From: Somniosus microcephalus
Taxonomy: Eukaryota
Length of the DNA stretch: 64,000 nucleotides
Direction of reading: 5' to 3'
Assembly: GCA_052327205.1 (NCBI GenBank)
Contig: JBMRGM010000043.1
Span: 31,744,001-31,808,000 of the forward strand
Shown: positions 8,773 to 47,628 of the stretch, piece by piece
Layout of the letters: each line of letters begins with the position of its first letter
Numbering within the stretch: position 1 is the stretch's first letter
Program-made: the position numbers and the translations under genes
Notes under the pieces: model-generated
The model's database searches: none
What the model was told of the DNA's origin: nothing
What the model saw: only the letters and a program-made list of their open reading frames with translations

Positions 8773-8803
8773 ATGATTCACATCTGTCGCCTTCTGACCT
8801 TGT
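8773..8803 (+). CDS. Gene A exon S1 (signal peptide part 1, MIHICRLLTL)
   Basis: 31 coding nt then gtaagt, phase 1; conserved in B. Confidence 0.85.
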
Positions 8804-9374
8804 GTAAGTAAATCTCAAATATTTCCAGTGCCTTTGAAAATCAACGTCACTCACCCCTGACCGTTAACCAGATTAATAAGACTCATTCAGTGAGAGGGTG
8901 CTTCACAGTAAATTAATATTCAGACTTTATTAAGGTCAAACATTCAATTATACTGCATTGAAATGTCATTTCCATGCTTCAGTTTTAATCAGAATTTAGT
9001 GGAACAACAGAAATAAGTTTGATTAGTCAGGCAAACAGGATCTTTCTGCTCATCTAAGGTTGCAGCCGACCTTAGTCACATCTAAACGGTCCAATATTTA
9101 TTATTTCACCAATTATTTAGCCTCACCTGCAGAAACTGCTTGCACGTTTCTTATTGTTGTCGTTTTGTTTATTAGAAAAAAATAAATGTTTTATGCGCTT
9201 CATCTCAAGTATCAGAGTTGGCTCAGTTGACTCACTCTTACAAATTGCTCTTAATACATGCGGTGAGATTTACAGTGCGTGGGTTCTGTGGCTAGATGTT
9301 AAACTTGGTCCATGTCATTGCTTGATGATTTCGTGTGCGGCAGGCACGCTTCTTGTTAACAACTGCCACAGTGC

Positions 9375-9408
<34 letters not shown>

Positions 9409-12400
9409 GGCGGAGCGGGAGAGGGAGTCAGTGCGAAAGACAATCAGATAGGGACAGAGAGAGACAGATAGACAGAGATTGTAAGAAAGTAACAATTAAG
9501 CTGTCCACGAAGGAGAGTGACAGAGAGAGAGAGAGAGAGACGGCAGGAGTTTTTTTTTCAACTCAGTTTTGCAGATTCACGATGAAGGGCTTCTTTTATT
9601 TTCTGTTGTGAGGGAGAAAATAGACATTAACGGGACGACAACACTTGAGTTAACAAAGCTGAGGAGAACATATTTACTATGATTATACTTGACCTAAACT
9701 GACGGCTTAAGGGTGTTTGGCAAGGAAATTTAAAATGCTGCATCTTTAAAATTAATTTCTGATGCTGTTTATTGGAATTTAGACAGAAATGACTCTTTAT
9801 GGCCACAGGACATTGAGGCTGCCTTCCTGTGAGATGCTGACGTCAGCGCTCTATTGGCTTGTTAACCACTGGATCACAAGCCCAGCAAACAGGAACAAAC
9901 AACAGGGTTTGCATCTTTAATGTACCACCGACTCTTTCACCAGAATCTCATCTATTTTAGTAACTTGACATCAGTTGTGGGACCATGTTGGTCACAGCTA
10001 CTTCCACAGATTAATGAGGTAGAGCTTAAAATATGTGAAGTTAACCTCAAGTTGTTCATTCTTGAGCATATAATAGGCCCCATGATTTATTTGTTGCACA
10101 GCACATGAAACCCACTTTTTGGAAATATTGGCCTAACTGAATGCTTGAAACATTCACCCTATTGAATCCTAGCTGGACAAAAGTCCCAGGTTCTACATGT
10201 TGAACAATGAAATACAGACACATCTGCATTGACCATTGACCCTTTTGCAATTATATTTGCAAGGTTTGCAGCAGCAGGCATTGCCTTAGTAGTCTGATTC
10301 CTGTGGCCTGAGGCGCGACAAAAGCTTCCTGCTGCTTTCTGCTGCTAGCGGCTGGGTCATGTATTGTCTTCACGAGTATCAGTTGCAACCCAGGTAATAC
10401 TTGTGATTCTGAATCGATTAAAGATGAGTTAACTGATGATAGGAACATACCAACAGGAGTAGGCCATTCAGCCCTTCGACGCTGCTCTGTCATTCAATTA
10501 TATGATGGTTAATCTGTACCTCCACTCCAATTACCCCACTTTGCTCAACATCCATTGTTACGCTTACTCAACTCGTGTCAGCCGTGGCTCAGTGTATAGC
10601 ATTCTCGCCTCTGAGTCAGAAGGTTCGTGTGATTCCGGTCCCACTACAGGGACTTGAGCACAATCAACTAAGCTGATACTCCAGTGCAGTGCTGAGGGAG
10701 TGCCGCACTGTCGGATTGGCCGTTTTTTATAATAGACGTTAAAGTGAGACCCCTTCCAGGGTGTTTATCCCTGGTGCCCTGGGCAATATTTGTCCCTCAA
10801 TCAACATGACAAAAACAGATAATCTGGTCATTATCAACATCATTGTGTGAACATTGGCTGCCACATTTCCTACACTGACTAAACTTTAAATGTCCTTCAT
10901 TGGTTTTAAAACGCTTTGGGAAGTTCGGAGGTCTTGAAAGGCGCTATAGGAAGGCAAATATTTCTTTCATTTTTTAACGAAGATCTATCGATCTCCGTCT
11001 TGGAAGTACCAATTTACCCGCAAAATCCACAGCGGTTTTTGTAAAGAGCGTTGAAATTTCTCACTACACATTGTGTGAAAAAGTGCTTCCTGATTTCCAT
11101 CCTAAATGGCCTATAAACAATTTTAATGAAATATTCCCTTCTCCTTGACAGAACAATCACACTCATTGGCTCTCAGAACAATGATACATTTCAATATTTG
11201 TCAGTTTCCTTTCATCCGGCAGCAACTTTTCCATATAGTCCTCAGACCATGGGGAACTTCCACAAAATAACAATTTATCTTTGTCTGTGAGAGGGACAAT
11301 TGGCATCATTCGATATATTAATATTTTACATTTACTTCAACTGAACTGAATACCTCGTGGCATGTATGGACTGGCAGCAAATGTGTTTCCGCCTGTTTTG
11401 TGTCCCTGCCGAAGTCAAATTTCAACCCCTGGGTGTTTCCTCTATTCAGCTGCCTTACAGCTGAGCAGCTGAGGTCAAACTTGAAGATGGTCTCAGATAA
11501 TGAAACATATTTTACATTGTCTTCTCTCTTGCAGTGCAAATTACTCATCAGGCGACCACACAAGGTATGATGACAATAATGTCCTTTATTGATAATAATC
11601 CAGTTGTGGAATGAACGCTTCCAATTTATATCTATAGGACAACAACAATCCAGCAATGGAGTAATTATCAGCTGTTCGCCCGTGCGTAAAACTGTGGTTC
11701 TGGACTCGCCACCTATGAGAAACTTTCGGTCATCATTTTCATTGATTCGGTGGGAATGTAAAGTGGGCGGTTTCTCTCACGGTCGGCCAATCAGAACCCC
11801 AGTTTTAAGCCTCGGCGCCAAGTTTAATGTCTACCACAATATATTAAAGAAAAAGCGACCTAGAAATTTGTCTGTGTAACTGCTAGATCATTTAACTGTG
11901 GGTTGGCAGCGAGTAATCATAACTGAGTAAATAAATGGATGGATAGATAGACAGTTCTTTGTTGAAGTAACAGGGAATGCTAATCAAATTAGTGCAGTTC
12001 ACTGTCGTGTATATAGACTTTCAAAAAATGCCTAATGAAGTACCACACAACTGATTTGTTCGCAAAAATCGTATTGTTATCATTGCGATTAAGGGGTACG
12101 GACAGCGTGGATAAGAAATTGTCTGAGACAAGGAAGCAGAGAATAGTTTTCAATTTTCGTTTTCTGTGATTGGAAGGGAATATTCAGTGTTATTCATAGT
12201 CATAGAGTTATACAGCACAGAAAGAGGCCCTTCGGCCCATCGTGTACACGCCAGCCATCAAGCCCTATCTATTCTAATCCCATTTTCGAGCTCTTGGTCC
12301 GTAGCCTTGTATGCTGTTGCGTTTCAAGTGCTCATCTGAATGCTTCTTGAATGTTGTGAGGGTTCCTGCATCTACCATTTCATGATGATATGGAAATATA

Positions 12401-15400
12401 TGGAAAGCGTACTTATTCTGTGTCGCTTTTATGCTTTCGCTAGTAAATCTGATGGGAGAGTGCATGGAGCACACTCCGACCATTCTGTTCTGCAATGACA
12501 TACGGGGTGGGAGGCGGTGACTAGTGGTGTTTTGCAAGGATCAGTGCTTGGGCACCAGCTATTCACAATAAATATCAATGATTTGGATGAGGGAACCAAA
12601 TATAATATTTCCAAGTTTGCTGATGAAATGACACGAGGTGGGATCGTGAGTTGTTATTAGGAGGCAAAGTGTCTTCAAGGAGATTTAGACAAGTTGAGTG
12701 AGTGGGCAAAACCATTGCAGATGCAGCATAACGTGGATAAATGTGAAGTTATCCACTTCGGTTGGAAAAACAGAAAGGCAGAGTACTAAATAAATGGTGA
12801 TAGATTGGGAAATGTTCATGTATAAAGGGACCTGTGTGTCCTTGTACCCCAAACACTGAAAGCAAATATGCAGGTACAGCAAGCAGTTAGGAAGGCAAGT
12901 GGTATGTTGATATTCATTGCAAGAGGATTTGAGTACAGGAGCAAGGATGTCTTTCTACAGTTATAGAGGGCCTTGGTGAGACAACACCTGGAGTACTGTG
13001 TGCAGTTTTGGTCTCCTTACCTAAGAAAGGATGTACTTGACATAGAGGGAGTGCAGCGAAAGTTCACCAGACTGGTTGCCGGGATGGCAGGACTGTCGTA
13101 TGAGGACAGATTGGGTCGACTAGGCCTGTGTTCACTACAGTTTAGAAGAATGTGTGGATCTCATTGAAACGGTTAAAATTCTGGCAGGGCTACGCAGACT
13201 GGATGCAGGGAGGATGTTTCCCCTGGCTGGCGTGTCTAGAACGAGGGGTCACAGTCTCAGGATACGGGGTAGGAAGTTTAGGACTGAGACGAGGAGAAAC
13301 GTCTTCACTCATAGGGTGGTGAACCTGTGGAATTCTCTACCACAGAAGGCTGTGGAGGGCGAGTCACTGAATATATTTAAGAAGGGGATAGATAGATTTC
13401 TAGACACAAAAGGCATCAAGGGGCATGGGGAGAGAGCTGGAATATGTTTGTGAGACGTAGGATCTGCCATGATCATATTGAATGGCAGAGCATGCTCGAA
13501 GGGCTGAATGGCCTACTCCTTCTCCTATTTTTCCATGTTTCTGTGTTTCTAAGCTGGGTCCGGTGTAAATCACAAAATCCTGATTTGCATGGTGACAGAG
13601 GAGTACCGCCAGGAAAAGGCAGGTGCTTCTGCCGCCCAAAGGTCGGCCATTCTAAAAGTTTAAGCAGCCAGGGAGTTTCCGTTTACAACGTGCTGAGGTC
13701 GATATCAACGATGTAAAGTCATCACCAACTCAAAAGATCGATCCATGGGCACCCGATAGGTAGCGCCCATTTTGGACAGCGACTAGAAATTCTCTGTAGT
13801 GGATATTGCACAGATTAGTTTCAACAATTCTAATCAGAACATTATTTTATTTTCATTCTACAGCCCATGTCCCAGAAGTAGTCCTTAGCAATCCGAGCGA
13901 TGGAATCGTGAAAGAAGGGGAGACATTTTACCTGCATTGTCGATACAGAGGCATGAATCAATGGGCTTATTGGTATAAAGATGAGACTTATATTCATTAT
14001 AAATATATGTTCTTTGAAAGATATGCAGATAGTCGCAGTGGAGCGTCTTACCAGTGTTCAGTGCCGCTGCTTTGGTCCTCCTCTGAGAAGAGTAAACCTC
14101 TGGATTTAGTCACCATTGGTAGGTAAACTTCGACACCAATGATCATAGCACAGTTTTAGTCGAGAAATGTGTCGCTTATAAAGGGGCCTCACAGTCAAAT
14201 ATAGTACAGGATATCAAGCACATGCAATACTGGGATAAAATTGGACCACTGGGCAGAAGTGTATCTTCATCCCTCCTCCTAACAGGGGGACCTCTCGGTT
14301 TCCCCAGAGTTGAAATATATGCCGCTATTTTGTGCGGTAGTATCAGCCAGTTTCACCTCCCATTTATATCACATTAACTTCAATTGAAATATCGCACAGA
14401 GTCTAAATCTACCCAAATTCTTACATGTTGTTAGGTCAATCAAATGTTATTTATTTCAAGAGAGACCTTAAACCGCTAATTGTGCATGGAACAGCGGCTC
14501 TCTAAAACAGCAGATACGAGAAAGCCACCGTTAATATCTCCTAGAGTAATTTTAAGACTGTGTTGAAAGCTTAAATTCTATTTCCAAAGTTCAAACTACA
14601 AAATCTGTGATCTGCAAACTAGTTTATATTAATAATAATGACATCTGAGAATTGCTGTGTCGCTGGTCTGATATGCAATGACTTCTCCATTTAAACATTA
14701 CTTCATCCTCTGCGAAGTAGGTTGTAGGGTGACCCATCACAGGTTTAAAATCCAACTTTGGTGGAAGCACGTAATGGGCTCTACTCTCTCCAACCCTGTT
14801 ACAAATCAAATGTAAAAGTCATAAAACCGACTGCTGTTTCGTATTCGCTCATTTGCCGCCAATGTGTATTACAAATTTATACCGGAGTGGGAATAACTTT
14901 ACCTTTCATCGCAGGGTGAAATAAACAGGCGAGGTCCAATCAATCGCCATGTTTTAGATTCAGGTGGAGTCGCATTTCTATTTACTTCAGTGTTAAATAA
15001 ATCGAGAGTGGTTTGAAACTTATGGCTGCTCCATTACTGCCCTTTGGCCTCTTGGCGGTAAAAGTGAAAAGTAGCTCAAGTGTATCCTCCCGGCGCTCCC
15101 CTGGGATCAGGATTGGTTGGAAGTGCATCTGCAGACCCGAGGCATGGTGAGAAGTGGAGTGTACATTTATCTTGTGTCTCTCAGAAAACAAATTATTATG
15201 AGGTGCAACGAATGCTTTTATCTAGGTAATAAGCAATGCTAGAAAAATTGTTGATAGGTGACTAACTAGGGGCGCTCCTTGAGCACTGCCACAAGTTTAT
15301 TGTATGTGCAGTGCAAAAACCCTTTACATACATAAATGGGGTTCCCTTCCGCACACCTGGCGAAGTTACAGCGGAGGAGCGAAGGCAGGAAATTGCCCTG

Positions 15401-18400
15401 TGTTTCCACAAAAGTTAATGGGACAATGAGCAGCTAATTTGTTTGGTCTTGCTGGACGAACGAGCAATACCCCAGGACACTGGAACGACTTCTTCGTCTT
15501 GGCGTCGTTCAATGGGATTTTTAACTGATATCAGAAGCACCTGAACAGGTGAAAGCGGCCACGGTTTTAATATCTTGATTCCACAACATTTACAAATACC
15601 AGACGTTTATTTAGAGAGGGCTGGGCATCTGCCTGGCTGTTGAATCGATCCTCGCCATTGAACTTCGTTGATGAAACCTTGAAGGGCAATATGAGCAGTG
15701 ATAGCTCAGCATTAGAAAGGGAACGGTCACTCTCTGAACCAATAAACATTAGTTTGGCTTTTCAGGTCTTAAAATTACTTTTAGTTACTGAGGTGATACC
15801 GATTGCTCTGGATATTGAGCTGCACTTTCAAGCCAATGTTTTTTAACATTGAAGAATGGTGCTTTAACATATTTTAATTTGTATTTCGTTCATATGTTTC
15901 ACTTTTTTTGCAGCTTCTGATATGAATTTAACTCTGGAAGTGAATCCAACATCCGCACTGTCAGGTGACAGTATTATCCTGAAATGTTTGATGCCTTCCT
16001 GGAAATGGAGAGAAGGTTTTCCCTTCCTGTGGTATCGAGATAAACAGTTAATAGCAGAAACTGACGAATCTCAGTACACCATAGAAAACGCAAAAGAGTC
16101 AGATACGGCACCATATCGGTGTGAACTCAAAATACGTTACAGGAAGTGGATCTCCCCGAATGTAACCATCACCATAAAAAGTTGGTCACTGCTTTTCTTT
16201 TTCATTTTCTTTATTTGATCTGGTAATGAGCTGTTGAAGGATGTGAAGTATTCTAAGAATCCTTGGCCTATATATGACTGCACAACCACAGAAATGTGGT
16301 TGACTCTTAATCCCCTCTGAAATGGCCTGGCAAGCTACTAAGTTTTATCAAAGCACGAGAAAAAACTGTAAGATTAAAACTTGGAGGAACACCTGGCATT
16401 GAACTAGGCATCATATTCGGACACAGATAAGACACACAGTCAACCCTGCAAAGCCCTCCTCCCTAACATCTGGGGACTTCTGCAAAAATTGGGACAGCTG
16501 TCCCACAGACCAGTCAAGCAATAGCCTGTCATAGTGATGATCACAGAATCATAACTTCCAGCCAATGTGGTGGCTGGGTGGTGACAGAGTGATGTAACTG
16601 TGAATATTTGCAGAATTCACAGTGATCATAGTAGATGTTGAGACACAGCAGGGAATAGCGAAAAGAGCAAAGTTCTATTGAAGGATTCATACTTGAATAA
16701 GTCTTGCACAGCGTGGAGTTCCTGTATCAGCAGAATATATTAAGCAGATTAAGTTCTCCGCAAACAAAGCAGCGAGTGCAAATCCATAACAATATAGTAA
16801 TGCTGCCTACTGGAGTGTTCCACAATACAGCTGCTGGTTACCATTTAGTACAGTCGCACCTCGTGGTGGTTCTTGGTATATCCTTGCTCTTGTTATCAAT
16901 AATCTCTGCTATTTGTTTAACTATATGAGATGAATTCTTACCTCCCAATCCATATTCTGTTTTCACCGAACTCTTCTCCAAACCTAAACTGAGGACTGAG
17001 CCTGCAGTTAAAATATTTGAGGTAGACCAGTTAAAATTCATTTTTTTTATTGAAACAATGCTGTTCAATATTAGGCTTCAATACACATTTCACAAAAATG
17101 GCAAAGCTCTGCAGTTGAATTCATACATCAACTCTAAGCACATGGGGGCAGCTTCTTTGAAGGGCTCGGTGACTTAGCCTTGTTGAGCAAATGCTTTCTA
17201 CCACCGTGATAACAACAGAGTGATGAGGTTTCCATTACGGTAGAAGGTAAATAGAACCAGCTGTAATTACTGTTCATCTTTCATTTAAAGAATTCTTCAG
17301 GGGATTATAGATAAATAAATATACGGGAGGGATCCAATGTGGAAAAAGATTTACTCCCAGCTTTATCACATAATAAATCAATTTTGGATGTGATCTGTTT
17401 AAATCAAAGCGCCACCTGGTTCTATAAAAAATCCATACATTTACTGAAACCCACACTTGTAATAGCTGCAACGTTTGAAGACCAGTGTCCACTCCCAGTG
17501 GCTAATATTAGCTTCCTGCAATAGTGTCGAATGGGCGATACTGAATTTGCCTCCCATTATATGTCCCTCCCGTGTTTGCATCGCATCATTATCATTGGAC
17601 AGGAACATCGTGCGTGGTGTACAATTGGTGCAAGATTCGATACCACGCGTTTTACACCATGGATCCAAGGTCAAGTTACCTCCTCTGTTTCTGTCTGACT
17701 GAATCAGCAACGAGCAGAACCTGGTCAGGAACAGCACGGTGTTTAATCAGACAGTGCCTTACCACTTACTAGTCCCGGCAATCGTTGCTAGCTGAAATCT
17801 CGGTGCTAAAATTTAACTTGGAGAGTGCAGTAGATAATTGGCAGACAAGGAAATCGAATTTCACCTGTGTGTAGATAGTATGGCCAATGAGCTACTACCG
17901 GTTTTGCACCCCAGACAAACTTGAATTTCCACCCCTCCAATTTCAGTAGAGGGGGATGACGGGGTGGCAAAACGCCGGAGGCTATTGAAGGCTGAGCCTC
18001 TGATGTCCGGCCTCTCGATTGCATTCAGTTAGAATCTGCCAATCATAACTCTATCTTTACATTTTAAAAGGAGCAGGCAATCAGAACACCAAGTGGGTGT
18101 TATCGATCCTGTGTCATCAGTGGATTTTCAAAGAATTGCATTGTCCATAGCTGAGCGTTTAACATGAATGTCCTAAAATGTGAAGGTGCTGCAACAATGA
18201 CCAATGAGGTTTCAGTATTTAAGACTTGGGCATAAAGCATCGCCTGGGCGGAGAGCAGAGTCCAAAATCTGAGTGGGGGGAATGGGGTGGGCTGAAGAGG
18301 GATAATCTCACAGGACCCGCAGGATGTTTCCTCCATTCATTTTAACGGAAGGGTTAACTTCTCCCCAAATCTAGCCACGAGAGTATGTTCAGATGTCGGT

Positions 18401-21400: not shown

Positions 21401-24400
21401 GTCCTGTTGAAAACTTTCAATTTTGGAAGAAAACCTACTATTTGGTGTTATGTGCAGAAACATTAGTTAGAACTAATATTCAATATCACTAATGGAACAG
21501 CGCAAGGACAATTCTGAACTAAATATTTTCGCCAATGCATTTACACCTGATCAACAATTCTTGCACCAGTCTGATTTATTTATCTGATTTAATCTAAGTG
21601 AGTACTCAAAATAGGTTTCAATTTTGAATTGTAACTTGCAGAATTAATTCTCTACATCTTTAATCTTATCTGCTTTCCACTAGTTCCTGCAGCTGGTGCT
21701 TCTCTCACTTCCAATGCCAACAAAACTGAGATTTCAGCGGGGGACCGTCTCTTTCTCCAGTGCCTGGTGAAGAGAGGCACTGCACTGCTTTTCCGCTGGT
21801 ACCTGAACAACCAACAGTTAGGAAACAACAGCGAATCTTATCACTTAAGCAGGGACGGGAGTGAACTCATTATCAATTCATTCCAGACAGGCCATGGAGG
21901 TCGATATCACTGTGTAGCGACCAACAGAGGGAGCTTTGAAGGAATAGTAATGACAACCAGCAATTATATCGATGTCACGGTACCATGTAACAGAACATTG
22001 TGCTTGATCTAATTTTATGAAATACTTTTCTTCCGTCAAAGTAAACAGTATATTGAATTTGCATGACTTATATCTCATAAAGAAAACATTGCAGCTCAGG
22101 TGGAAATTTATAAGTATAGTTTCTGATTAAGAAATTGAACTTAACTAGGTGAAAACCGTGCTGAAATAAACTAGCAAATTTTCACAAGGGTGCTTTTGAA
22201 GTTGAAATTGATAAGGATACAAAGCAGAGCCATGGTCATAAAGTGACAGAGAGGGGAAGTTTGGGAGGGGTGAGCAAAAACCTGGCTGCAAATATGGTTC
22301 CTGTGAGGATGTTTGAAGCAGGCTGTAGTAGAGGTGGTTTAGGAGAGTAGAGCCAAAGCACTTTCACTAATGGTGTGACACAGGAAGCGCGTGAGCCCAA
22401 TAGGCCACAAATTAACTGACTGAGGGCTGTAAGGATGGAGATATAATTGGAGGATATATGTAAGAAATATAGTGAACACGACGACCAGGTGTTTAAAATT
22501 GTTACATTCGAGGACAGGAAGCTAGATTGGAAAAGTGGCGAGTAGGAATTGGTGTGGGACAGGGATGTCTTGTTTAGTTGTAGTTTGTGGATGGCGGCGT
22601 TGGGAGCTCAGCAAGGAAGGCATGGTAATAATCGACCCTAGAGCTGACAAATCCATGGACCAATGTTCCAGGTTCGTGGGTCTCAGGTGGGTAGAAAGGG
22701 AATCCATTCAGTGCAGATTTTAAAAACAATTTTAATTCGGTGTATGGTGCGGTGTTGGATTTGTAATGCTTGGAATGGTTTTATGCTATTCATGTAATAA
22801 GTTTGTTTGATTCCAGCACAAAGTCACACAACCGCGATCACAGCAACAGTTCTTCCACTTTTTCTGATCGCTGCCCTGATTGCACTGGTTTTCTTCAAAC
22901 TTCGGAAGCAGAAACAAGGTGAGCAGTGTCTTCCGGGCAGGTGATTGGCTCGACAGACACGGGATGGGATTCATTACCCAACATATTCAGTTGCATCATT
23001 CGAAATGTAACAGACTGATTTGAGAGGGAGAGGCACAGTTTGGGCAGGAGTGCAAAGAGTTATTTACATGGATGAATTCGGTTGATGAACTCACCTTGCT
23101 TAGTTGAGGATATGTTTCCGCTTCTACCATTCTCAAAAGGAATAAATCTGTGCCAGGGGGAGAATAATAACTGGCACGTGGTTAGGAAGAGAATGTGAAA
23201 TCTGCTTGATGATTTGTAATGATTGGTGATATCTTAAATTTTTCCAGAAGTTCTTTGTGCATTCGTGCTCTGTTTTATTTAATTATTGATATAAATGCAC
23301 GTGTGTAACAGTTTTTAATTATTAACAATGAAAATGCTTACTGTCTGACGATTATTTCAGGAAACCAAAACCATCTCTAGGCAGTAGAAGTGCCATATTT
23401 ATTGCACAACTTGCTGAAATATGTCTCTTTCTATTTTATCCAGACAATTCCTCAAGTGTTTCACAGCCGCAGGGGTAAGTCTGCAAAATCTTTATATTAG
23501 TCCATCGTAACTATATCCATGATTATACTGAAAGCTGAAAATCCTCTTTGGCCCGGGTGCAAATTATACGCCCCCAATTGGAACCGAATATTGGACTCGA
23601 CCTAGACGGTCGCTAGTTGCGCCTTTTATGCCTCCACGTACAAATGGAATTACACCCCATAGTCTCTGATATAGCTCCGATGGAGACGGTTGGAATGTTT
23701 AAGTGCTAAATACTCTCTTTTTTTGTTCTTGCTTTTTAGTTTATCAACAGGTCAGTCAGCCTAACATAGTTATTGGAAACCATTATTAGGGAAAAAATAA
23801 ACATTAATTTGTAAAGACATTGTTTAATCAAGGAGATGCAACATGGATTTGTTAAAGGAAATCATGTGTGACTAACTTGATTGAATATTTGATGAGTTAA
23901 CAGAGACTTTTGATCAAGATGGTGTAGTAGATGTTGCATATATTGACTTGCAGAAGGCAGTCATCCGAGGCTTGTTAAAAAAGATGTAAACCCATGGGAT
24001 TAAGGGAAAGTGGCGTTATGGATACAGAATGGGCTCGGTGACAGGAAGCAGAGAGTGGTGGTGGATGGATATTTCTCAGACGGGGAGGTGGTTTTGCAGT
24101 GGTGTTCCCCAACAGTCATTTTGGGGTCCAGTACTCTTTGAATTTTAATGACTGACCTAGACAAAGGTGTAAGGAGCAACATTGTAAATCTGCAGATGAT
24201 ACATAACTTGGCCAGGTAGTAGATTGTGATGAGGATAGTTGTAGTCTTCAGGGTGACATAGACAGGAATGGTTAAATGGGCAGAAGCATGGCAGATGGAG
24301 TTCAACCTGGAACTGTGAAGTGATGTACTTTTGGAGAACTAATCTGGAAAGACAATATACAACAAAAGCCACGATTTTGAAAAGTGTAGATGAGCAGAAA

Positions 24401-27400
24401 TCCTTTGGTGTGCATATACACAAATCCTTAAATATGACATGGCAAGTAGATAAGTTGGTTAAAGAAGCATATGGATCATTTGTTTTTTTAAAATAGCGGC
24501 TTATAATGTAAAAGCAAAGAGAACAAGCTAGAACTTTATGAATCAATGTTTAGGTCTCAGCTGGACAATTCATGGTAGCAACTCATCAAGGCTTCTTCGG
24601 CAGCAGCTCCAAAACACGCAAACTCTTCCAACTAGAAGGACAAGGGCAGCAGGCGCATGGGAACACCACCACCTCCAAGTTCCCCTCCAAGTCACACACC
24701 ATCCTGACTTAGAAGTATATCGCCGATCCTTCATCGCCGCTGGGTCAAAATCCTGGAACTCCCTCCCTAACAGCACTGTGGGAGTACCTTCACCACACGG
24801 ACTGCAGCGGTTCAAGGAGGCAGCTCACCACCACCTTCTCAAGGGGCAACTAGGGATGGGCAATAAATGCTGACCTTGCCAGCGACACCCACATCCAAAA
24901 TACGAATAAAACCACACTTCAGGAAACATAGTAAGAGGCAAAGAAAGGTTACAGCGGAGGTTTACAGGATATTGCAAGGGATGAGGGACTTTATTTACGA
25001 GCAGTGGTTGGATAATTAGGACATGGAATAGAGAAGGTTAAGAGGTGAGCCATTAGAGATTTTCAAGGGGATGAGAAGCTTTGTTAGAGTAGATAGAGAA
25101 ACAATATTCCCTCTTGGTCAATAACTAGAGGTCATAGATTTAACATCATTGTATAAAGATCTTGAGGGGAGATGTGGAGAAATATTTTTCAATGAGAGAG
25201 TTGTCGGGATGTAGAATGCTCTACCTGAAAATTTGGTGGAAGCTATTTCCATCAATAACTTTAGCAGTGAGTTGGACGGATCGTTGACGATGAGGACCAT
25301 TTAGGGCTGCGGACAACAGCCAGGGATATGGGACTAAGTACGATTGCTCCTTCAAGGCATTCTATGTTCTGTATATCTACTTCTGAATTCTATGATTCTG
25401 TAACATTTCGTTAAAAGTTAACTTTGCGTTGTTGATGCATGAATCCTAAATATCTGAGAACATTTTCGTGCACAGTGTGGCAACTGAAAATAAATCTCTA
25501 ACCCCGAGTGAAGAAACATCTGCGAACAATTTCGAGTATGCAGTTGTGGGATCAGCCCGAAATACCGGTAAGCGTGAACTGACACATGTGAAAAATATGG
25601 TAGATTGTTCATGGTAACATTGGTTCTGCCGGTAACCCATCGTATCTTCGGTGGAATATCGGTAAATATTCAGGGAAACGGCCATATATGCATGGCTTGC
25701 GGCAATATTCCACTGACGTTGTGACAGGACATGGTGGAAATCACCCATGGACATTGGAGTTCTTCATCTGCAAGCATTCAGAATACCCTCGTGTTAGATT
25801 CCCATCTTATTGTCTGGGTATTAAGCATCGCATGGGTCGAGCATACTCAGGGAAATAGTTGAGGCACTTGGCACGGTTCAATTGAACCATGTTAGTGGAA
25901 AGAAAAGCTGGTTGGTTCCGTAAAGGATGTGCCTGTTGCCCCAGCAGACTGAGCAGTCTGCGCTCTTTGCAGGTGATGCTAACTGTTCCGATGCCAAAAC
26001 AAAAATCTACCCCCTATTCCCTTTTAATTTTGAATTCATTATTTCCTCTACCTCTCATTTTTCTTTTTTCTGATGGTAGTGGTTCTCAATCGGCTGGGAT
26101 TGATAGGTGGACATCTGGGTGCTAGTCCAAAGTTTTAATCTCGGAACCTGATAATCAGACATATTGAACAATATCTTGAGTATTAAATTGATTTGGGGAA
26201 CTGTCTCCTCCCCACCATTACGAATCAACTTTCCAAGCAAAGGATGCTGGAACTGGTCCTCAGCCCGATATCTGGGTGCCTGGAATGGAGTAATCAGAGA
26301 ATATGCTTCTCACCGTCACCCTGTTTACAAGCAAGCGACTCAGCCCAGCCCTATGGCTTGGGACCAAAACACTTCATGAATTTGCTCACGGGACGGTGGA
26401 TCAGCTTGTATTGATCAGGATAATTAGTTGCTTAATTTTAATACCAGTAAACACAGCAGTAAATTTCTAATCATGAATTGTAGGTTGTGTCTGGTATCTA
26501 AATGCTTCCTTAATTAACTATGTCATTGAGCACAGTTTCCATTTATTCTCTCTGCAGCTTCTATTTCCAATCATATAATCTACAGTGTAGTCCAAGGCAC
26601 GAAACCTATGGAAGGTAAGGATTCGCCTTGTTACTTGGCTGGAGGGATTTGTATATCTCATAGGGCTTCATAACTACTGTGAGGGTAGCGACTGTCTTCA
26701 GACTGTGAGAAGTAATCTGGGAAGGGTCTGAATCCATTGATGCATTATAGGACTGGCACCACAATCGCAGTATTTGTAAATGACAAAATCACTATTGGCA
26801 CTTTGTAAGTTCCATCTCTCGGGAGTAGTATCCTTAGAACCTGCACACGAACTCCACTGTTCTGGTTTTTAGATAACTATTGTGTGGAACATCGTAATTG
26901 GCCAGACTCTTAATGTCACCATAACATGCAACGACGATAACAAATCCTTAATATAACTCGATCGATACAGTTGAAGGCAAGTAACGTGTACATTTGGCAA
27001 ACATAATCCATTCTTGGACATTTAAATCAATGCTATGCAATTAATGGTTATATAACTGAGGGGAATGATATGCTCTAATTCCATGCACTATATACATATT
27101 ATGGATACTAATACGATTTTCTCAATTCATTATCGCTGTCAATTAATTTATACCAAGCAATCAGTCAGTCTAGCTCTGTAAATAGGTATCCATGTGTCAA
27201 TCAATATCTTTCTATCTATGACTTTGCTCACGGGCCTGTGGAGCAGCTTTTATTGATCAGGTTAATTAGTTGCTTCATTTTAAAACCAGTGAACACAGCA
27301 GTAAATTTCCAATCATGAATTGTAGGATGGATCTGGTATCTAAGTGCTTCCTTGATTATCATTGATCGCAGTTTCCTCTTTCTCGCTCTACAGCTTCTAG

Positions 27401-30400
27401 TTCTGATCAGATAACCCACAGTTTAGTACAAGGCACGAAGCCCATGGAAGGTAAGGATTCGCTGTGTTACTTTGCTGGAGGGCTTGTTAACTACTGTAAG
27501 GGTAGTGACTGTCTTCAGATTGTGAGACATCATCTGGGAAGAGCCTGAATCGATTGATGCATTATAGGACTGAAACCACAATACCAGTATTTGTAAATGA
27601 AAAAAATCACTATAGGCACTTTGTAAGTTCCATCTCTCGGGAGTAGTATCCTTAGAACCTGCACACAAACTCCCCTGTTCTGATTCTTAGATAACATCAT
27701 AATTGGCCGGACAATTAATGTTGCCATAAACTGCAATGACGATAACAAATGCTTAATATAAGTCGATCAATAAAGTTGAAGGCAAATAATGTGTACTTTT
27801 GGTGGCAAACATCATCCATTCTTGGACATTTAAAACAATGCTATTCAATTAATGGTTATATATCATCCTTATTAAACTTATGGAAATGACATCATCTATT
27901 CCCATGCACTAAATTCATATTATGGATACTAATACGGTTGTCTCAATACATTATCGCTAGCAATTAATTTATATCAAGCAATCAATCAGTCTACCTCTGT
28001 AAATAGCTATCCATGTATCCATCAATATCTTTCTATCTATGTATCTATCTATCTTTATATCTATCTTCCAAATATCTATGTATCTTTCTATCTATCACTC
28101 CATGTCTTCCTCCCTATTTCTCTATATATATCTATCGTCCCTCTATCATCTATATATTAATCCATCTTAATGAAGCCTTATTTTTGTCTTGTTTTCTCTT
28201 TTTGTTTCTGTTTAGATATTACCGGAAATGCTGCCAATTTAGTGTATTCGGAGGTCACGATCAGAAAGTCACGAGGCTGTGGTAATTTCTGTCAATTGTT
28301 CGCAGCTGTTGCTAAGCAAGATGATAATTACAGTTCTACATAATGTTGGGTTATTCCTCTGCTTGATATAGTGGGAATGAGGTACATGGACTGTAAACTA
28401 AATAGTGGGGAGGGGGGAGGGTTCAGTTGAAGGGGAATTTAGAAAGTCAAACAGAAAGGAGGAGGTAACAGTGCAAGGTAGCGATAGGGGTAATGATAAC
28501 CAGAGATTGACAGGAGGAGACAAAGCATACAGACATAAACGTGCACTTGCAAACAGATTCAGAGTAGTTAAAAATGGTATAAAAATAAATAAAAGCTCTT
28601 TAACTGAATGCATGCAGCATTCATAACAGGATAGATGAGTTGCCGGCACAAATCGAAATAAATGGGCATGATCTGATAGTCATTACAGAGACGGGGTTGC
28701 AAGGTGACCAATTCTGGGAACTGAATATTCAAGGGTATTTGATATTTCGGAAGAATAGGCAGAAAGCAAAAGGAGTTGGGTAACTCTTTTAATAAAGGAT
28801 GTGATCAGTGCAGTGGTGAGAAATGATATTGGCTCAGAATATCAAAATATAGAATTTGTTTTAACGGAGATAATAAATAGTAAGGGAAATAAATCATTAG
28901 CGGGAGCAGTCTATAGCACTCCTAACTGTAGCTACACTGTGTAGGACAGTGTATAAATCAAGAACTAATAGGGGCTTGTAAGTAAGGTACTGCGATAATC
29001 ATGGGCGATTTTAATATTCATATAGCTAGAACAAATCTAATTGACAAGGTTAGCCTTGAGGACGAGTTCATAGAATGTATTCGGTATGGTTTCTTAGAAC
29101 AATACGTTGTGGAATCAACCAGGGAGATGGCTATTTTAAATCTGGTAATATGTAATGGGGCAGGATTAATTAATGATCTCATGGTAAAGGATCCTCTTGT
29201 GAAGAGCGATCATAGCATGATGAATTTCTAATTCAGATTCAGGGTGAGAAACTTGGGTCTGAAACTTAAATAAATTCAATTACAAAAGGTATGAAGAAAG
29301 AGTTGGCTAAAGTAGACTGGGAAAATAGATTAAAGTGTAAGACGGTAGATAGGCAGTGACAGATATTTAATGAGATTTTTCATAACTCTCAGCAAAGATT
29401 TATTGCAGTGTGAAAGAAAGACTCTACGAGAAGGATGAACATCCGGGGCTAACTGACGAAGTTTAGGATGGTATCAAATTGAAAGAAAATGCATAATATG
29501 TTGCAAAGATTCGTAGTAGGTGAGAATTGGGAAATTTTTGAAAATCAGCAAAGGATGACTAAAAAATTAATAGAGGTAGAAGATAGATTATGAAAGTAAA
29601 CTAGCAAAGAATATAAAAAAACAGAGACTAAGAGCTTCAACAGGTATATAAATGAAAGATAATAGCTAAAGTAAACGTTGGTCCCTTAGATGATGGGACT
29701 GGGGAATTAGTAATGGGAAACGGGGAAATTGCAGAGACATTTAACAAATATTTTGTATTGGTTTTCACGGTAGAAGACACAAAAAGCATCCCAATGATAA
29801 TTGATAATCAAGGTGCTGTATTCACAATATATATCTAAAATTTGGGTGAGGGTCCCAAATGTAATATTTCCAAGTTTGCTGACATCACAAAACTAGGTGG
29901 GATTGTGAGTTGTGAGGAGGAGGCTAATAGGCTTCAAGCTAATTTAGACAAGTTGATTGAGTGGGCAAATACATGGCAGATGCAGTATAACGTGGATAAA
30001 TCTGAAGTTATCCATTTCAGTACGAAAAACAGAAATGCAGAATATTATTTAAATGTTGATAGATTGGGAAATGTTGATGTACAGACGGACCTGGGCGTCC
30101 CTGTACACCAGTCACTGAAAGCAAACATGCAGGTGCAGCAAGCAGTTAGGAAGGGAAATTGAATGTTGGCCTTCATTGCAAGAGGAGTTGAGTACAGGAG
30201 CGAGGATGTACATTTATACAGGGCCTTGATGAGACCTTGGGAGTACGGTGTACAGTTTTGTTTTCCTTACCTAAGAAAGGATATACTTACGATAGAGGGA
30301 GTGCAGCGAGGGTTCATCAGACTGATTCCTGGGATGGCAGGACTGTCGTCTGAGGAGCGATTGGGCCGACTAAGCTTTATTCACGAGAGTTTAAAAGAAT

Positions 30401-33400: not shown

Positions 33401-33949
33401 ACGACACAGACTGCAGCGTTTCAAGAAGGCGGCTCGCCACCATCTTCTCAAGGGCAATTAGGAATGGGCAATAAATGCTGGCCTTGCCAGCGACGCCCAC
33501 ATCCCGTCAATGAATAAAAAATTATCATCGCTTGTTTAAATTTAGTCGGTGGTTTATTCATTGCTCGTTTCAATCCAACCATTTTATTTTGATTTTTAAC
33601 TATAAAAGTAAATTAATAGAGGAATTATAAGTGAAATTGTGTGAGCTCAGCCAGTTAATTGTCAGTAGTTTTGACCATACTGTAAATCGGGCAATATTGA
33701 ATTGGCCATCCATTATCCATCTCTCCCGACTTCCCTTCCACTGAAATCACCACTGATTCTCTCTCGCCAGCTGTGCACCACCACCTGAGACAATTTCAGC
33801 CCCATATTCTTTAATTCCAGGTTAACAAGATTGGTCCCAGCGACTATTGTGTCACGTACGCCACAGTTAACCGCACAAACACTGAAGCTAGTTTGGAAGG
33901 ACGTCCAATGGAAGAAGGCTGTGTCTACGAAAACATTCCACGGAAATAA
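8773..33949 (+). CDS. Gene A: Fc receptor-like (FCRL-type) inhibitory Ig-superfamily receptor, ~672 aa, 15 coding exons (SP-5xIg-TM-ITIM tail)
   Basis: join 8773-8803,11535-11564,13864-14118,15914-16180,18580-18858,19738-20025,21684-21986,22817-22918,23444-23474,25476-25567,26558-26614,27394-27450,28216-28281,32317-32348,33821-33949. All introns GT-AG, phases compatible, 2019 nt with no internal stop. Confidence 0.85.
9374..9540. repeat. (GA)n microsatellite-rich stretch (paralog ~38527-38665)
   Basis: Visible gagagaga runs. Confidence 0.9.
10575..10970 (+). mobile_element. tRNA-derived Deu-domain-like SINE (SacSINE1-like) inserted in a CR1 3' fragment
   Basis: A-box gtggctcagtgtatagc; Deu-like core gcactgtcgga..gagacgttaaa; flanked by minus-strand CR1 tail halves (~10440-10570, ~10980-11150). 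Paralog at ~39697-40080. Confidence 0.7.
11535..11564 (+). CDS. Gene A exon S2 (30-nt signal-peptide mini-exon, LQITHQATTQ)
   Basis: cttctctcttgcag| ... caag|gtatga; phase 1-1; one substitution versus B (40643-40672). Confidence 0.85.
11950..13545 (+). mobile_element. CR1 LINE fragments (RT C-terminus to 3' end), with a small opposite-strand CR1-tail insert at ~12198-12378
   Basis: ORF pieces VRQHLEYCVQFWSPYLRKD and RTRGHSLRIRGRKFRTETRRNVFTHRVVNLWNSLP; 3' tail ttccatgtttctgtgtttct. Confidence 0.9.
13864..14118 (+). CDS. Gene A Ig domain 1 exon
   Basis: AHVPEVV..VKEGETFYLHC..YWYKD..GASYQC..VTI; ctacag| and G|gtaggt; 255 nt. Confidence 0.9.
15914..16180 (+). CDS. Gene A Ig domain 2 exon
   Basis: ASDMNLTLEVNP..SGDSIILKC..FLWYRD..SDTAPYRC..SPNVTITIK; tttgcag| and A|gttggt; 267 nt. 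Confidence 0.9.
16260..16568 (+). mobile_element. 5'/endonuclease fragment of a shark non-LTR retrotransposon
   Basis: Shares gtggttgactcttaa..cctctgaaatggcc with 33195-33235; degenerate APE start (NIWGL..KLGQLSHRPVKQ..VMITES). Lies where A lacks about 4 kb present in B. Confidence 0.6.
16831..16928 (+). CDS. Candidate alternative terminal exon (GPI-signal/TM-like hydrophobic C-terminus), gene A
   Basis: ttccacaatacag| acceptor in phase 1; encodes xAGYHLVQSHLVVVLGISLLLLSIISAICLTI-stop; frame and stop conserved in B. Confidence 0.5.
16969..17246 (+). pseudogene. Inactivated Ig pseudo-exon (FcR D3-type) within gene A
   Basis: Paralog of intact exon 47629-47904; acceptor AG changed to CG (16967-16968), first Cys lost, TAC changed to TAG, frameshifts. 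Confidence 0.9.
18580..18858 (+). CDS. Gene A Ig domain 3 exon (FcR D3-type)
   Basis: LFSKPTL..FEGQQLNLAC..LRYVFFKD..DSGIYQCEA..VKKLSNQVSVSVR; resembles FcgammaRI/FCRL D3; 279 nt. Confidence 0.92.
19738..20025 (+). CDS. Gene A Ig domain 4 exon (FCRL D4/D5-type)
   Basis: IPVSKPEL..EGDTASLTCSVFNGSTPITYIFYK..GDYICGVSN..HSDFVTVAVL; 288 nt. Confidence 0.92.
20430..21015 (-). mobile_element. 3' fragment of an abundant shark non-LTR retrotransposon
   Basis: ORF2 C-terminus LNIHSLHH..CTIYKMHCSNSPRLL..SWNSLP..LQRFKK..LLKGN; same family at 24577-24910 and 33280-33520. Confidence 0.85.
21684..21986 (+). CDS. Gene A Ig domain 5 exon
   Basis: VPAAGASLT..AGDRLFLQCLVKRGT..FRWYLN..GGRYHCVATN..SNYIDVTVP; weak donor T|gtaaca (G|gtaact in B); 303 nt. 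Confidence 0.88.
22817..22918 (+). CDS. Gene A transmembrane exon
   Basis: SQSHTTAITATVLPLFLIAALIALVFFKLRKQKQ; uncharged TM with a basic stop-transfer; ttccag| and G|gtgagc. Confidence 0.9.
23444..23474 (+). CDS. Gene A cytoplasmic exon 1
   Basis: DNSSSVSQPQG; 31 nt, phase 1-2; conserved in B (56792-56822). Confidence 0.85.
23740..25400 (+). mobile_element. Old CR1 LINE (RT to 3' end) with a nested non-LTR 3' fragment at ~24577-24910
   Basis: Degenerate QHGFVKGKSC / YIDLQKA RT motifs; tail ttctatgattct; the insert encodes SSRLLRQQL..LLKG. Confidence 0.8.
25476..25567 (+). CDS. Gene A cytoplasmic exon 2 (ITIM-like FEYAVV)
   Basis: 92 nt, phase 2-1; cacag| and G|gtaagc; conserved in B (58427-58518). 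Confidence 0.85.
26558..26614 (+). CDS. Gene A cytoplasmic exon 3 (ITIM IIYSVV)
   Basis: ASISNHIIYSVVQGTKPME; 57 nt, phase 1-1. Confidence 0.85.
27394..27450 (+). CDS. Gene A duplicated cytoplasmic exon 3' (Tyr-to-His variant, ITHSLV)
   Basis: ASSSDQITHSLVQGTKPME; splice sites intact; 57 nt, symmetric phase so it can be skipped. Confidence 0.7.
28216..28281 (+). CDS. Gene A cytoplasmic exon 4 (ITIM LVYSEV)
   Basis: DITGNAANLVYSEVTIRKSRGC; long pyrimidine tract; 66 nt. Confidence 0.88.
28398..32020 (+). mobile_element. Composite CR1 LINE (endonuclease ~28590-29250, embedded RT C-terminal piece ~29816-30515, RT to 3' end ~30520-32020)
   Basis: MGDFNIH..SDHSM (APE), KFADITKLGG, QHGFMEGKLCLTNLLE, KFADDTKV, VVNLWN; many stops. 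Confidence 0.92.
32317..32348 (+). CDS. Gene A cytoplasmic exon 5
   Basis: DNDDGASGRKQ; ttacag| and CAG|gtaagt; its 1-0 phase bridges exon 4 to the last exon. Confidence 0.8.
32930..33520 (+). mobile_element. Internally deleted non-LTR element with a tRNA-like head and a LINE 3' end
   Basis: B-box-like gagttcaaatccc at ~33002; 3' part encodes EHLPLQVTHHPDLEVY..LLKGN, then aataaa. Confidence 0.7.
33821..33949 (+). CDS. Gene A terminal coding exon (ITIM VTYATV; C-terminal VYENIPRK)
   Basis: ttccag| phase 0; VNKIGPSDYCVTYATV..GCVYENIPRK-stop. The ending resembles the YENVPR of mammalian FCRL3. Confidence 0.88.
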   Translation, partial: VNKIGPSDYCVTYATVNRTNTEASLEGRPMEEGCVYENIPRK

Positions 33950-37908: not shown

Positions 37909-37939
37909 ATGAAGCACATCTGTCGCCTTCTGATCTTCA
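37909..37939 (+). CDS. Gene B exon S1 (MKHICRLLIF)
   Basis: 31 nt then gtaagt. Confidence 0.85.
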
Positions 37940-40642: not shown

Positions 40643-40672
40643 TGCAAGTTACTCATCAGGCGACCACACAAG
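40643..40672 (+). CDS. Gene B exon S2 (30 nt)
   Basis: tttcag|TGCAAGTT..CACAAG|gtatga. Confidence 0.85.
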
Positions 40673-41049
40673 GTATGATGACAATAATGTCCATTATTGA
40701 TAAAAATGCAGTTTGTGGAATGAACGCTTCAAATTTATATCTAGAGGACAGCAGCAATCCAGCAATGGAGTAATTGTCAGCTGTTCACCCGAGTGTAAAA
40801 CTGACCTTCTGGATTCGCGACCTATAAGAGAAACGCTCGATCATCATTTTAATTGATTGAGTGGGAATATAAAGTGGGCGGTTTCTCTAACAGTCAGCCA
40901 ATCAGAACCCCAGTTATAAGCCTCAGCGCCAAGTTTAATGTCCAGCACAATTTATTAAAGACAAAGTGACCTATAAATTGGCCTGGGTAACTGCCAGCTC
41001 AGTCACCTGAGGATTGGAAGCGAGTAATAATAAATGAGTAAATAAATGG

Positions 41050-41650
41050 ATGGATAAATAGACAGTTCTTTGATGAAGTAACAGCGAGTGTTGATGAAAT
41101 TAGTGCGTTAATGTTGGTTATAGACTTTCAAAAAGCGCTTAATGAAGATCAACGTAACAGACTTGTTAGCAAAATTGAAACCAATATGAATAAGGGGAAG
41201 TGGCAGTGTGGTTAAGAAATGGACTGAGACAAAAAGCAGAGACTAGTTGTGAAGTGAATATTCAGCGGTGTCTCGCAGATGTCTGTATTGAGACCTCTGT
41301 TCTGTCTGATATTTATATATCACCTGGATTTGGGTATACATGGGCACAATTACAAGCCTTGCAAAAGTCATGAAGCTCGGAAATGTAGTAAGGAATACGA
41401 AAGGTCGAAGCAGGCTTCAGAATGATAAAGACAGAGGGGCGAAATAGGCAGACACATGGCAGATACAATTTAATGCTGGAAATTGCAAAGGAAAGTTACT
41501 AAAAGTGTACCAGGGACACGGGATTTCAGTTGCATGGAGAAACTAGGGCTGTTCTCCTTTGAGCACAGAAGTTTAAGGTGTGATTTGATAAAGGTGTTCA
41601 AAGTCATGAAAGCTTTTGATACAGTAAATAAGGAGACACTTTTAAAATGT
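41050..41650 (+). mobile_element. Old CR1 fragments
   Basis: IDFQKA and MEKLGLFSFEHRSLRCDLIKVFKVMK remnants. Confidence 0.7.
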
Positions 41651-41976
41651 AAGTTAATTATATTTGAAACGCCTACCACCTGATACAGCGAGGCGATTGT
41701 GCCACAAAACCATTGGTCCTTATGAAAATCATAGCGGGCAGAGATTCGGGCGAAAGGGATGGTAAGTCTACCGATCCCATCTCGAGGTTCTTACCACCCG
41801 ATTTCGGCAAGTTAATGTCACCTCTTAAATAGAAATTTTGGTCAACAGCCCGCCAAAAGTTAGCGCCTGTTTGGGACACTGAGTAGAAATAACCACTGTA
41901 TTTATTACAGTGGATATTTCATAGATTAGAAGTTCAATATTTCTAACAACAAATTCCTTTTAATGTCTTTCTGCAG

Positions 41977-42210
41977 CTTCTGGACCGGAAGTGCTGGTTA
42001 GTTATCCCAGCAGTGGAGTCGTAAAGGAAGGAGATACATTTAAACTGCAGTGCCGATACACTTATTGGTGGAAAAATAATGAAAAGTTACCTGAATCTTA
42101 TGGGGATATTTATGAATCGCTTGTCGACAGTAGCAGTGGCGGCTCTGACCAGTGTGAAATGTTTTCGGTAGAATGGCGGAGGAGTGAGACTTTGGAAGTG
42201 GTCACCATCG
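41977..42210 (+). CDS. Gene B Ig domain 1 exon (open, shortened)
   Basis: ASGPEVLVSYPSSGVVKEGDTFKLQCRYTYWWK..SDQC..VTI; 234 nt. Confidence 0.8.
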
Positions 42211-45428: not shown

Positions 45429-45465
45429 CCACAAGCATTCGGAGCGCTGCTCCTTCGTCAGGTGA
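45429..45465 (-). ncRNA. Mutated hammerhead copy in the inverted arm
   Basis: Reverse complement reads tcacctgacgaaggagcagcgctccgaatgcttgtgg (GAAA changed to GAAT). Confidence 0.65.
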
Positions 45466-47588: not shown

Positions 47589-47628
47589 TCGGAACTGTGA
47601 CCTGTCAATCCAGATTCTGTTTTCACAG

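Follow-up and report, generated by a model that had tools for sequence, protein, structure and literature searches.

Linkage to SLAM/CD2, IGSF9, TAGLN2 and other 1q21-23 genes is a trait of the Fc receptor and Fc receptor-like (FcR/FCRL) genes, and an origin of the family as sensors of pathogens or of MHC has been proposed for Xenopus (PMC2413239). Three publications from one group describe cartilaginous fish as lacking FcRL genes (PMC4016189, 2014; PMC5742104, 2017; PMC13337447, 2026), and bamboo shark B cells are described in a single-cell study as expressing genes named fcrl3 and fcrl5 (PMC11372145). An earlier note on the locus presented here called the elasmobranch homologs poorly characterised, which is fair, although in 10 or more genera of sharks and rays they already carry automatic Fc receptor-like names; no paper analysing the RefSeq shark and ray FCRL models was found in the literature. 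A 2021 Immunogenetics paper on teleost LITRs reportedly covers the elephant shark as well, with two fcrl genes and one LRC-like gene. Given the database names, that 2021 paper and the 2024 single-cell paper, the bare presence of FCRL-like genes in sharks is not new. The locus described here brings dozens of tandem copies, some of them predicted activating partners, in a group that reviews say lacks the family.

The window, a stretch of 64,000 nucleotides of Somniosus microcephalus DNA, contains at 8773..33949 on the plus strand an intact gene of 15 exons (Table 1). As the earlier note had proposed, these exons join in frame from a signal peptide through five Ig domains and a transmembrane (TM) segment to a tail, the spliced form comprising 2019 nt and encoding 672 amino acids, with a single, terminal stop and GT-AG ends at 14 of 14 introns. 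The product has a leader, five Ig domains, an uncharged TM segment and a tail bearing three canonical ITIMs and a terminal YENI, and the Heptranchias RefSeq model (P0009) aligns with it end to end over residues 1-669 at 50% identity. Each Ig domain lies on its own exon with phase-1 introns, as in FcR/FCRL genes, a layout that is common to many IgSF genes and therefore not diagnostic. The leader is indeed split over two exons (31/30 nt), the ground on which it had been likened to mammalian FCRL leaders, but its second exon departs from the 30/21 nt rule of many FcR/FCRL members, a rule with which only a fraction of XFL genes comply (PMC2413239). An 11-nt micro-exon at 23740-23750 was rejected because its inclusion breaks the frame. 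RNA depth over the exons is near zero in two runs of unknown tissue, and no exon-exon joint was recovered in 15 of 406 RNA joints over 13960-33959, a stretch that left out S1-S2-D1 and in which the alignment was swamped by repeats; no RNA data set was listed as containing the D3-D4 stretch. Three contigs whose RNA origin is a guess overlie the exons of domains 2 and 4 at 12-15 differences, and one of them begins exactly at the acceptor 19738; they offer no more than a hint, from a relative or paralog.

Table 1. Features of the gene and of its tandem paralog, in window coordinates.
Feature	Position	Strand	Remark
Leader exon S1, 31 nt, ATG	8773..8803	+	Similar leaders in P0005, P0009
Leader exon S2, 30 nt	11535..11564	+	
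Ig domain 1 exon, elasmobranch-specific type	13864..14118	+	Variable among close copies
Ig domain 2 exon, elasmobranch-specific type	15914..16180	+	PDB matches weak
Broken D3-type exon, skipped in model	16969..17247 (end approximate)	+	Acceptor CG, first Cys lost, stops
Ig domain 3 exon, FcR/FCRL D3 type	18580..18858	+	
Ig domain 4 exon (IPVSKP)	19738..20025	+	Between PECAM1 D6 and FCRL D4/D5
Ig domain 5 exon, FCRL D6 type (amphibian, reptile, bird)	21684..21986	+	
TM exon	22817..22918	+	Zero charged residues
Tail exon C1	23444..23474	+	
Tail exon C2	25476..25567	+	FEYAVV (ITIM-like)
Tail exon C3	26558..26614	+	ITIM IIYSVV
C3 duplicate, 82.5% identical	27394..27450	+	Tyr to His; frame holds with or without it
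Tail exon C4	28216..28281	+	ITIM LVYSEV
Tail exon C5	32317..32348	+	
Last exon	33821..33949	+	ITIM VTYATV, terminal VYENI, stop
Tandem paralog, probable pseudogene	37909..58518	+	Stops in two Ig exons

All five tyrosine motifs listed in the earlier note are in frame, but only three (IIYSVV, LVYSEV and VTYATV) fit the ITIM consensus [ILVS]xYxx[ILV], against about 0.39 expected by chance in 156 amino acids at the window's own six-frame rate, and FEYAVV and YENIPR are not canonical ITIMs. ITIM/ITSM motifs and a terminal YxN, on separate exons, constitute the FcR/FCRL tail trait and are present here. A terminal Y[EQAG]N ends 15 of 22 elasmobranch and 23 of 52 FCRL-type tails and none of 71 PECAM-type tails, and the window tail scores 19.7 and 17.1 bits against FCRL tail profiles, compared with 5.9 against the PECAM profile. 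Phosphorylated, a terminal YEN is a Grb2-type SH2 site.

Domain trees, whole-protein scores and tail similarity agree with the FcR/FCRL membership and inhibitory design put forward in the earlier note, and the gene most likely belongs to this family. The diagnostic domain is the fifth, of D6 type, which that note had left unassigned: in a careful tree of 64 rows it groups with amphibian, reptile and bird FCRL D6 (99/93), and a clade with PECAM1 D6 is rejected (p-AU 0.013; AU tests on 48 of the 64 rows). A quick tree of 139 rows, limited to eight rows or fewer per reference type and with amphibian D3-D5 rows left out, groups domain 3 with FCRL D3 (SH-aLRT 86) and the D2-type exon of the paralogs with FCRL D2 (92), and places domains 1 and 2 in elasmobranch-only clades; three Condylura domains and one Lipotes domain, mis-cut or mislabelled in this tree and in the domain scoring, were excluded afterwards. 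Per-domain phylogeny, a check that the note had suggested, sides with FCRL for domains 3 and 5 but not for the other three. The D3 assignment of domain 3 holds by its position in the tree, but the ELFSKP...DSG.Y.C motif on which it was based also occurs in human PECAM1 D4, and the spliced form begins with KLFSKP. Domain 4, taken for D4/D5 from its IPVSKP start, scores best against PECAM1 D6 (65 bits versus 46-47 for FCRL D4/D5), as do 12 of 12 elasmobranch copies scored, and the GS.PI.Y.FY pattern regarded as a D4/D5 mark is also found in PECAM1 D6 (P0087). Domain 4 groups with PECAM1 D6 at 93/85, and AU tests reject a clade with FCRL D4 (p-AU 0.028) but not one with PECAM1 D6 (p-AU 0.198) or FCRL D5 (p-AU 0.152).

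Domain scores and tree place no canonical FcR D1 or D2 domain in the gene; a canonical D1 is recognised by PDB matches at the 5' end of the surrounding array. In whole-protein BLASTP comparisons turtle FCRL3 scores 154 bits, a caecilian protein 138 and a tree shrew protein 119, and three PECAM1 proteins 78-83. The N-terminal V-set domain that characterises Siglec, CD22 and CEACAM proteins is absent, with no V-set match above the Pfam cut-off in eight domains scanned, and no domain groups with the single CD22-like protein used (P0070). For P0004, the Heterodontus homolog, an AlphaFold model (pLDDT 61) retrieves generic multi-Ig structures in Foldseek and is not discriminating; among the matches listed PirB comes first by E-value and Fc-gamma-RI has the best target TM-score (0.54-0.62).

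Around the gene lies a 1.6-Mb tandem array with at least 37 TM exons, a context that the earlier note missed. The tandem paralog within the window has an Arg-bearing TM whose donor GT has become TT, lacks exons C3-C6 and carries an extra FCRL D2-type exon near 44743-44997. Arg is present in 8 of 13 translated TM exons and absent from 5, in the context TAIR or TTIR in seven of the eight copies and NTIR in one, which differs from the conserved NxxR; when the array and flank DNA examined were scanned for an NxxR-type TM on an exon of its own, a single genuine case emerged, within an Arg-class TM. Since some copies combine a near-identical ectodomain with Arg at the TM start and no tail tyrosines, they are candidate activating partners, and matching ectodomains joined either to an ITIM tail or to a charged TM, as in paired receptors, can be read from the sequences. 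Numerous Arg-TM copies appear to be broken, and the elasmobranch proteins compared included no Arg-TM form.

Next to the array lie LILR-like genes. No synteny with the human 1q21-23 region, which the earlier note had proposed to examine, was found with the markers tested: NCSTN and an FcR-gamma exon are on contig C40, PRCC is on C41, and the array is on C43, where scans for the Nicastrin, PRCC, Not3, TCR-zeta, Ets, zf-C4 and RGS-like families gave no match. ARHGEF11 was not located by the RGS-like RhoGEF scan; the flanks covered amount to about 0.2 Mb on the downstream side of the array and 0.05 Mb on its upstream side. As a tentative suggestion, a full paired FcR-like system of inhibitory receptors, Arg-TM activating receptors and FcR-gamma, whose array lies directly next to LILR/TARM1-like genes, both sharing one small chromosome in two or more shark lineages, might be a surviving ancestral FcR-LRC complex. 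If so, both families and FcR-gamma signalling would date to the jawed-vertebrate ancestor.

The gene encodes a single-pass surface protein with five Ig domains and three ITIMs, likely the inhibitory partner within a paired Fc-receptor-like (FCRL/XFL) family that has expanded in the shark. That it is instead an elasmobranch-specific branch from the PECAM1/MILR1 lineage, or a mosaic older than the FCRL-PECAM1 split, and not FCRL proper, appears quite improbable. The affinity of domain 4, the automatic PECAM-like names of the Chiloscyllium and Stegostoma homologs and the lack of synteny with the markers tested all suit such an origin, as does the single clade formed by FCRL D5 and PECAM1 D5 (99/94), which indicates that both families share domain types. 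PECAM1 itself, however, has neither a D6-type (FCRL D6) domain nor a terminal YEN, and the shark's own PECAM1 occupies a separate locus on contig C21, where its D1, D2, D3 and D5 group with vertebrate PECAM1; the gene lacks both the D1-D6 series and the orthologous locus of PECAM1, domain 4 alone being PECAM-like, and a canonical FcR D1 stands in the same array. It is also doubtful, if less so, that the family is inhibitory only, with Arg-TM copies that are decoys or pseudogenes and a copy number owed in part to assembly duplication. Several copies do contain stops and broken exons, TM-region DNA is 100% identical at four places, and the 30.3 Mb block recurs near 25.3 Mb, at 100% over two exons. 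Against this, the chain of one Arg-TM gene is open, with GT-AG introns, all the way from domain 1 to C2, has 7 of 7 examined exons in frame and its splice sites intact, and carries no tail tyrosines (the last exon of this gene was not found); clustered amino-acid changes separate close copies, and TAIR also stands at the TM start of an LRC-like protein of Pristiophorus with a short tail (P0270).

The probable paired-family member would be a receptor on leukocytes, probably B cells, with its ligand bound at domains 1-2. In eight close copies domain 1 has 13 non-synonymous and no synonymous variant bases (p 0.042) and is more variable than domains 2-4 (p 0.015), a small signal, uncorrected for several tests, that gene conversion could explain. 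A comparison of domain 1 with introns (p 5e-8) was discarded as invalid, only three of eight intron rows being usable. The concentration of amino-acid changes in domain 1 favours a variable ligand over Ig Fc, and on balance the ligand is expected to be microbial or a polymorphic self molecule such as MHC. The constant region of IgM, IgW or IgNAR is a rather unlikely ligand, given the diversifying domain 1 and the lack of canonical FcR D1/D2 in the gene; of the earlier proposal of an Ig-binding or MHC-binding inhibitory family, the inhibitory design is supported and Ig is the less probable ligand. [quoted passage not shown] For the inhibitory receptor that we favour, ligand binding would place the tail beside an activating receptor, the ITIMs would become substrates of a Src-family kinase, and signalling would be damped through SHP-1/SHP-2, with the terminal pYEN serving as the Grb2-type site; the Arg-TM sisters would recognise the same ligand, or one that overlaps with it, and signal via the FcR-gamma chain. 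The array supplies named, cloneable receptors with which to ask whether any shark FCRL binds IgM, IgW or IgNAR, and lets the pathogen/MHC-sensor origin of the family be tested.

Among known systems, PECAM1 (CD31) resembles the shark gene in its D3/D4-like and D6-like domains, its ITIMs and a tail split over small exons, and differs in its separate locus, the absence of an FCRL-D6 domain and a different tail. The RefSeq shark and ray 'Fc receptor-like protein 2/3/5' models (P0001-P0016, P0135, P0145, P0149) are of the same family and share the tail, with 38-50% identity over most of their length for sharks and 32% for a sawfish; their names are automatic, some being PECAM-like or hemicentin-like, and the numbers imply no orthology. 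Tetrapod FCRL3-type proteins (turtle P0264, caecilian P0189, Xenopus tropicalis P0133), with the layout D1-D2-D3n-D4-D5-D6, give the best non-elasmobranch BLASTP score among those compared and share with the shark gene D3, a membrane-proximal D6, a TM free of charged residues and, in the tail, the succession of the last three tyrosine motifs up to the final YEN. In the shark gene, by contrast, two elasmobranch-specific N-terminal domains replace D1-D2, one D4/PECAM-D6-like domain replaces D4 and D5, the second leader exon is 30 nt, and the locus is off the contigs bearing NCSTN, FcR-gamma and PRCC. The Xenopus XFL genes parallel the shark array in forming a large tandem family whose domains are shuffled, with D3 repeated and a D6 subtype present, and in having uncharged and Arg-bearing TMs intermingled on matching ectodomains (PMC2413239). 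The shark Arg-TM is nevertheless a TAIR-bearing version of the TM exon typical of the family (72-82% DNA identity) and retains two small tail exons, whereas XFL TM1 is an NxxR module of its own that shares an exon with its tail (PMC2413239).

As read from its sequence, the focal gene (window 8773-33949) is a real and intact receptor gene of the inhibitory type. The in-frame chain of 15 exons proposed in an earlier note, running from signal peptide through five Ig domains and a transmembrane (TM) segment to a tail, holds: the joined exons give a 672-aa open frame with GT-AG at 14/14 introns, in the order of a two-exon leader, five phase 1 Ig exons (domains 1-5), a TM exon that encodes no charged residue and, last, seven exons for the tail. 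The tail comprises 156 aa with six tyrosines, three of which match the ITIM consensus against a chance expectation of 0.39 taken from the six-frame rate of the window itself, and the product aligns along its full length, tail included, with RefSeq models from other sharks (P0009 of Heptranchias: 50%, residues 1-669). A tandem duplication of about 830 bp at window 26380-27950 has doubled the small tail exon C3, which encodes the ITIM IIYSVV, and the extra C3 has His replacing Tyr; in each of the three other paralogs examined that have a full tail, C3 occurs once. Other features are collected in the table, among them a retrotransposon-like element that appears BEL/Pao-like by eye.

Features in the window and elsewhere in the assembly (C21, C40 and C43 are contigs; C43 holds the window)
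Feature	Location	Strand	Remarks
Retrotransposon-like element	window 2500-6300		764-aa ORF at 3340-5634, flanked by two several-hundred-bp repeat copies
Broken D3-type exon	window about 16969-17247	+	left out of gene model
Paralog of focal gene	window 37909-58518	+	two in-frame stops, TM donor lost
Divergent array member	C43:30,272,137-30,302,400; copies at 25.27 and 25.66 Mb		canonical FcR D1, D2-like domain, Arg-class TM, if the exons are one gene
Arg-TM gene	C43:31.130-31.147 Mb		domains 1-4 near-identical to those of focal gene; splice sites intact
Histone H3-like ORF, divergent	C43:31,892,591	-	between two Ig-receptor clusters
LRC-like (LILR/TARM1/IGSF1-like) two-Ig genes	C43:31,895,000-32,101,000		directly downstream of FCRL-like array
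7TM receptor ORF, single-exon	C43:31,956,104	+	PF00001, E 3e-21; between two Ig-receptor clusters
PECAM1-like locus	C21:69.78-69.94 Mb		D1 and D2 exons twice, then D3, D6, two D5-type exons after D6
FcR-gamma-like TM exon	C40:10,607,082-10,607,165	-	best PDB match FCER1G, 48 bits vs CD3-zeta 39

Most likely the gene belongs to the FcR/FCRL family, as the earlier note had claimed. Membership with PECAM1 is a real rival, since a profile search with six shark proteins returned elasmobranch homologs first and then FCRL and PECAM1 mixed together. In PDB searches, FCRL5 D3, Fc-gamma-RI D3, FCRL4 and FCRLA ranked first for domain 3, domain 2 matched Fc-gamma-RI and Fc-epsilon-RI-alpha weakly, and the matches of domains 1, 4 and 5 were less clear. 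Reference domains were labelled by position, and domain profiles and trees were then built, the trees resting on fewer than 100 columns. An FCRL identity stood for domain 3, which scored 64 bits with FCRL D3 versus 52 with PECAM1 D4 and grouped with FCRL D3 (SH-aLRT 86), and for domain 5, which scored 53 with FCRL D6 versus 36 with PECAM1 D6 and grouped with the D6 of amphibians, turtle and bird (99/93), a clade with PECAM1 D6 being rejected (p-AU 0.013). It did not stand for domain 4, on which the PECAM1 reading draws: this domain scored best with PECAM1 D6 (65 bits versus 46-47 for FCRL D4/D5) and grouped with it (93/85), and a clade with FCRL D4, itself not a single clade, was rejected (p-AU 0.028), while clades with PECAM1 D6 or FCRL D5 both pass the AU test. 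Against PECAM1 stand also the whole-protein scores (108-154 bits for seven FCRL-named proteins versus 78-83 for three PECAM1), the FCRL-like end of the tail, unlike 71/71 PECAM-type tails scored, and the shark's own PECAM1-like locus on C21. Within the DNA fetched for that locus no D4 exon was seen, and the two D5-type exons after D6 are possibly a MILR1-like neighbour. In a midpoint-rooted tree, FCRL D5 joins PECAM1 D5 in a single clade (99/94), separate from FCRL D4, FCRL D6 and PECAM1 D6, suggesting that PECAM1 and FCRL are paralogous families.

The FCRL-like genes form an array. Throughout the 6.45 Gb genome, every one of 111 domain 3 matches (149/149 candidates scored) and of 40 TM exon DNA matches lies on the 44.2 Mb contig C43, on which the window spans 31,744,001-31,808,000. 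The TM matches fall at 30.30-31.86 Mb (34), near 25.3-25.5 Mb (five) and at 21.5 Mb (one), and three further TM exons found inside the array in fetched DNA bring its count to at least 37 within about 1.6 Mb. The order of domains varies between copies, and many copies are broken; where exons were compared, some blocks proved identical, so part of the copy number may be assembly duplication. The domain 3 match list also outlines a large inverted, mirror-image block centred near 30.67 Mb (30.39-30.64 versus 30.70-30.89 Mb). Members other than the focal gene carry a D2-type exon (SH-aLRT 92 with FCRL D2), and the domain at 30.272 Mb has its best PDB stretches in the D1 domains of FCRL4, Fc-gamma-RIII, Fc-gamma-RI and FCRL5. 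Among eight close copies of the focal subtype (six for domain 3), all 13 variant bases in domain 1 are non-synonymous, where a synonymous share of 0.22 would be expected (p 0.042); they fall at codons 20-35, 45-48, 58 and 68-69, and compare with 17 variant bases in 834 nt of domains 2-4 combined (contrast p 0.015). This is modest evidence that domain 1 may be under diversifying selection at a putative binding face, which would, to the same modest degree, favour a variable ligand over an invariant Fc.

Synteny with the FCRL/SLAM/CD1 region, a check the earlier note had proposed, was not found on C43 for the markers scanned: of the 1q21-23-type markers, NCSTN and an FcR-gamma exon lie on C40 and PRCC on C41; CNOT3 lies on C28, and three more family scans (ETS, nuclear-receptor and RGS-like) gave no match on C43. 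The second Ig domain of the LRC-like genes gives single-stretch matches to LILRB2, LILRB4 and LILRB1 (E 4e-5 to 2e-4), one of these two-Ig genes also includes a TM plus two ITIM exons, and their homologs are auto-named TARM1-like and IGSF1-like. The Heterodontus homolog is on a contig equal in length (27,249,576) to that of the FCRL-like models of the species, and the two are probably one contig.

Alone, the focal gene is a further member of a family already named in databases; worth study are the expanded paired array, its lineage-specific N-terminal domains, the adjoining LRC-like genes and the presence of FcR-gamma in the genome. Literature searches, with subscription journals mostly outside their coverage, turned up no published analysis of an FCRL array in elasmobranchs, of Arg-TM partners or of FCRL-LRC linkage. 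A 2021 Immunogenetics paper reportedly treats elephant shark fcrl and LRC-like genes. Passages of three papers state that FcRL is absent from cartilaginous fish (PMC4016189, PMC5742104, PMC13337447), and a passage of another reports fcgr1a-like, fcrl3 and fcrl5, known by annotation name alone, in bamboo shark B cells (PMC11372145).

The focal gene is likely the inhibitory member of a paired FCRL-like family. Five of 13 translated TM exons resemble that of the focal gene and eight carry an Arg ahead of 18 uncharged, mostly hydrophobic residues; in fetched DNA no more than two tail exons come after a TM exon of this Arg class, and ITIM exons never do, and the Arg-TM gene listed in the table has no tail tyrosines as far as traced. 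The FcR-gamma-like TM exon lies 2 Mb from NCSTN, and a second, CD3-zeta-like exon lies on C14. Xenopus Fc-receptor-like proteins (XFLs) and LRC receptors associate with FcR-gamma via the Arg of NxxR (PMC2413239, PMC6557307), and by analogy the shark Arg-TM copies may do likewise, as candidate activating partners. Their motif is TAIR, in contrast to the NxxR of those receptors, and an LRC-like protein of Pristiophorus with a short tail also has TAIR at the start of its TM.
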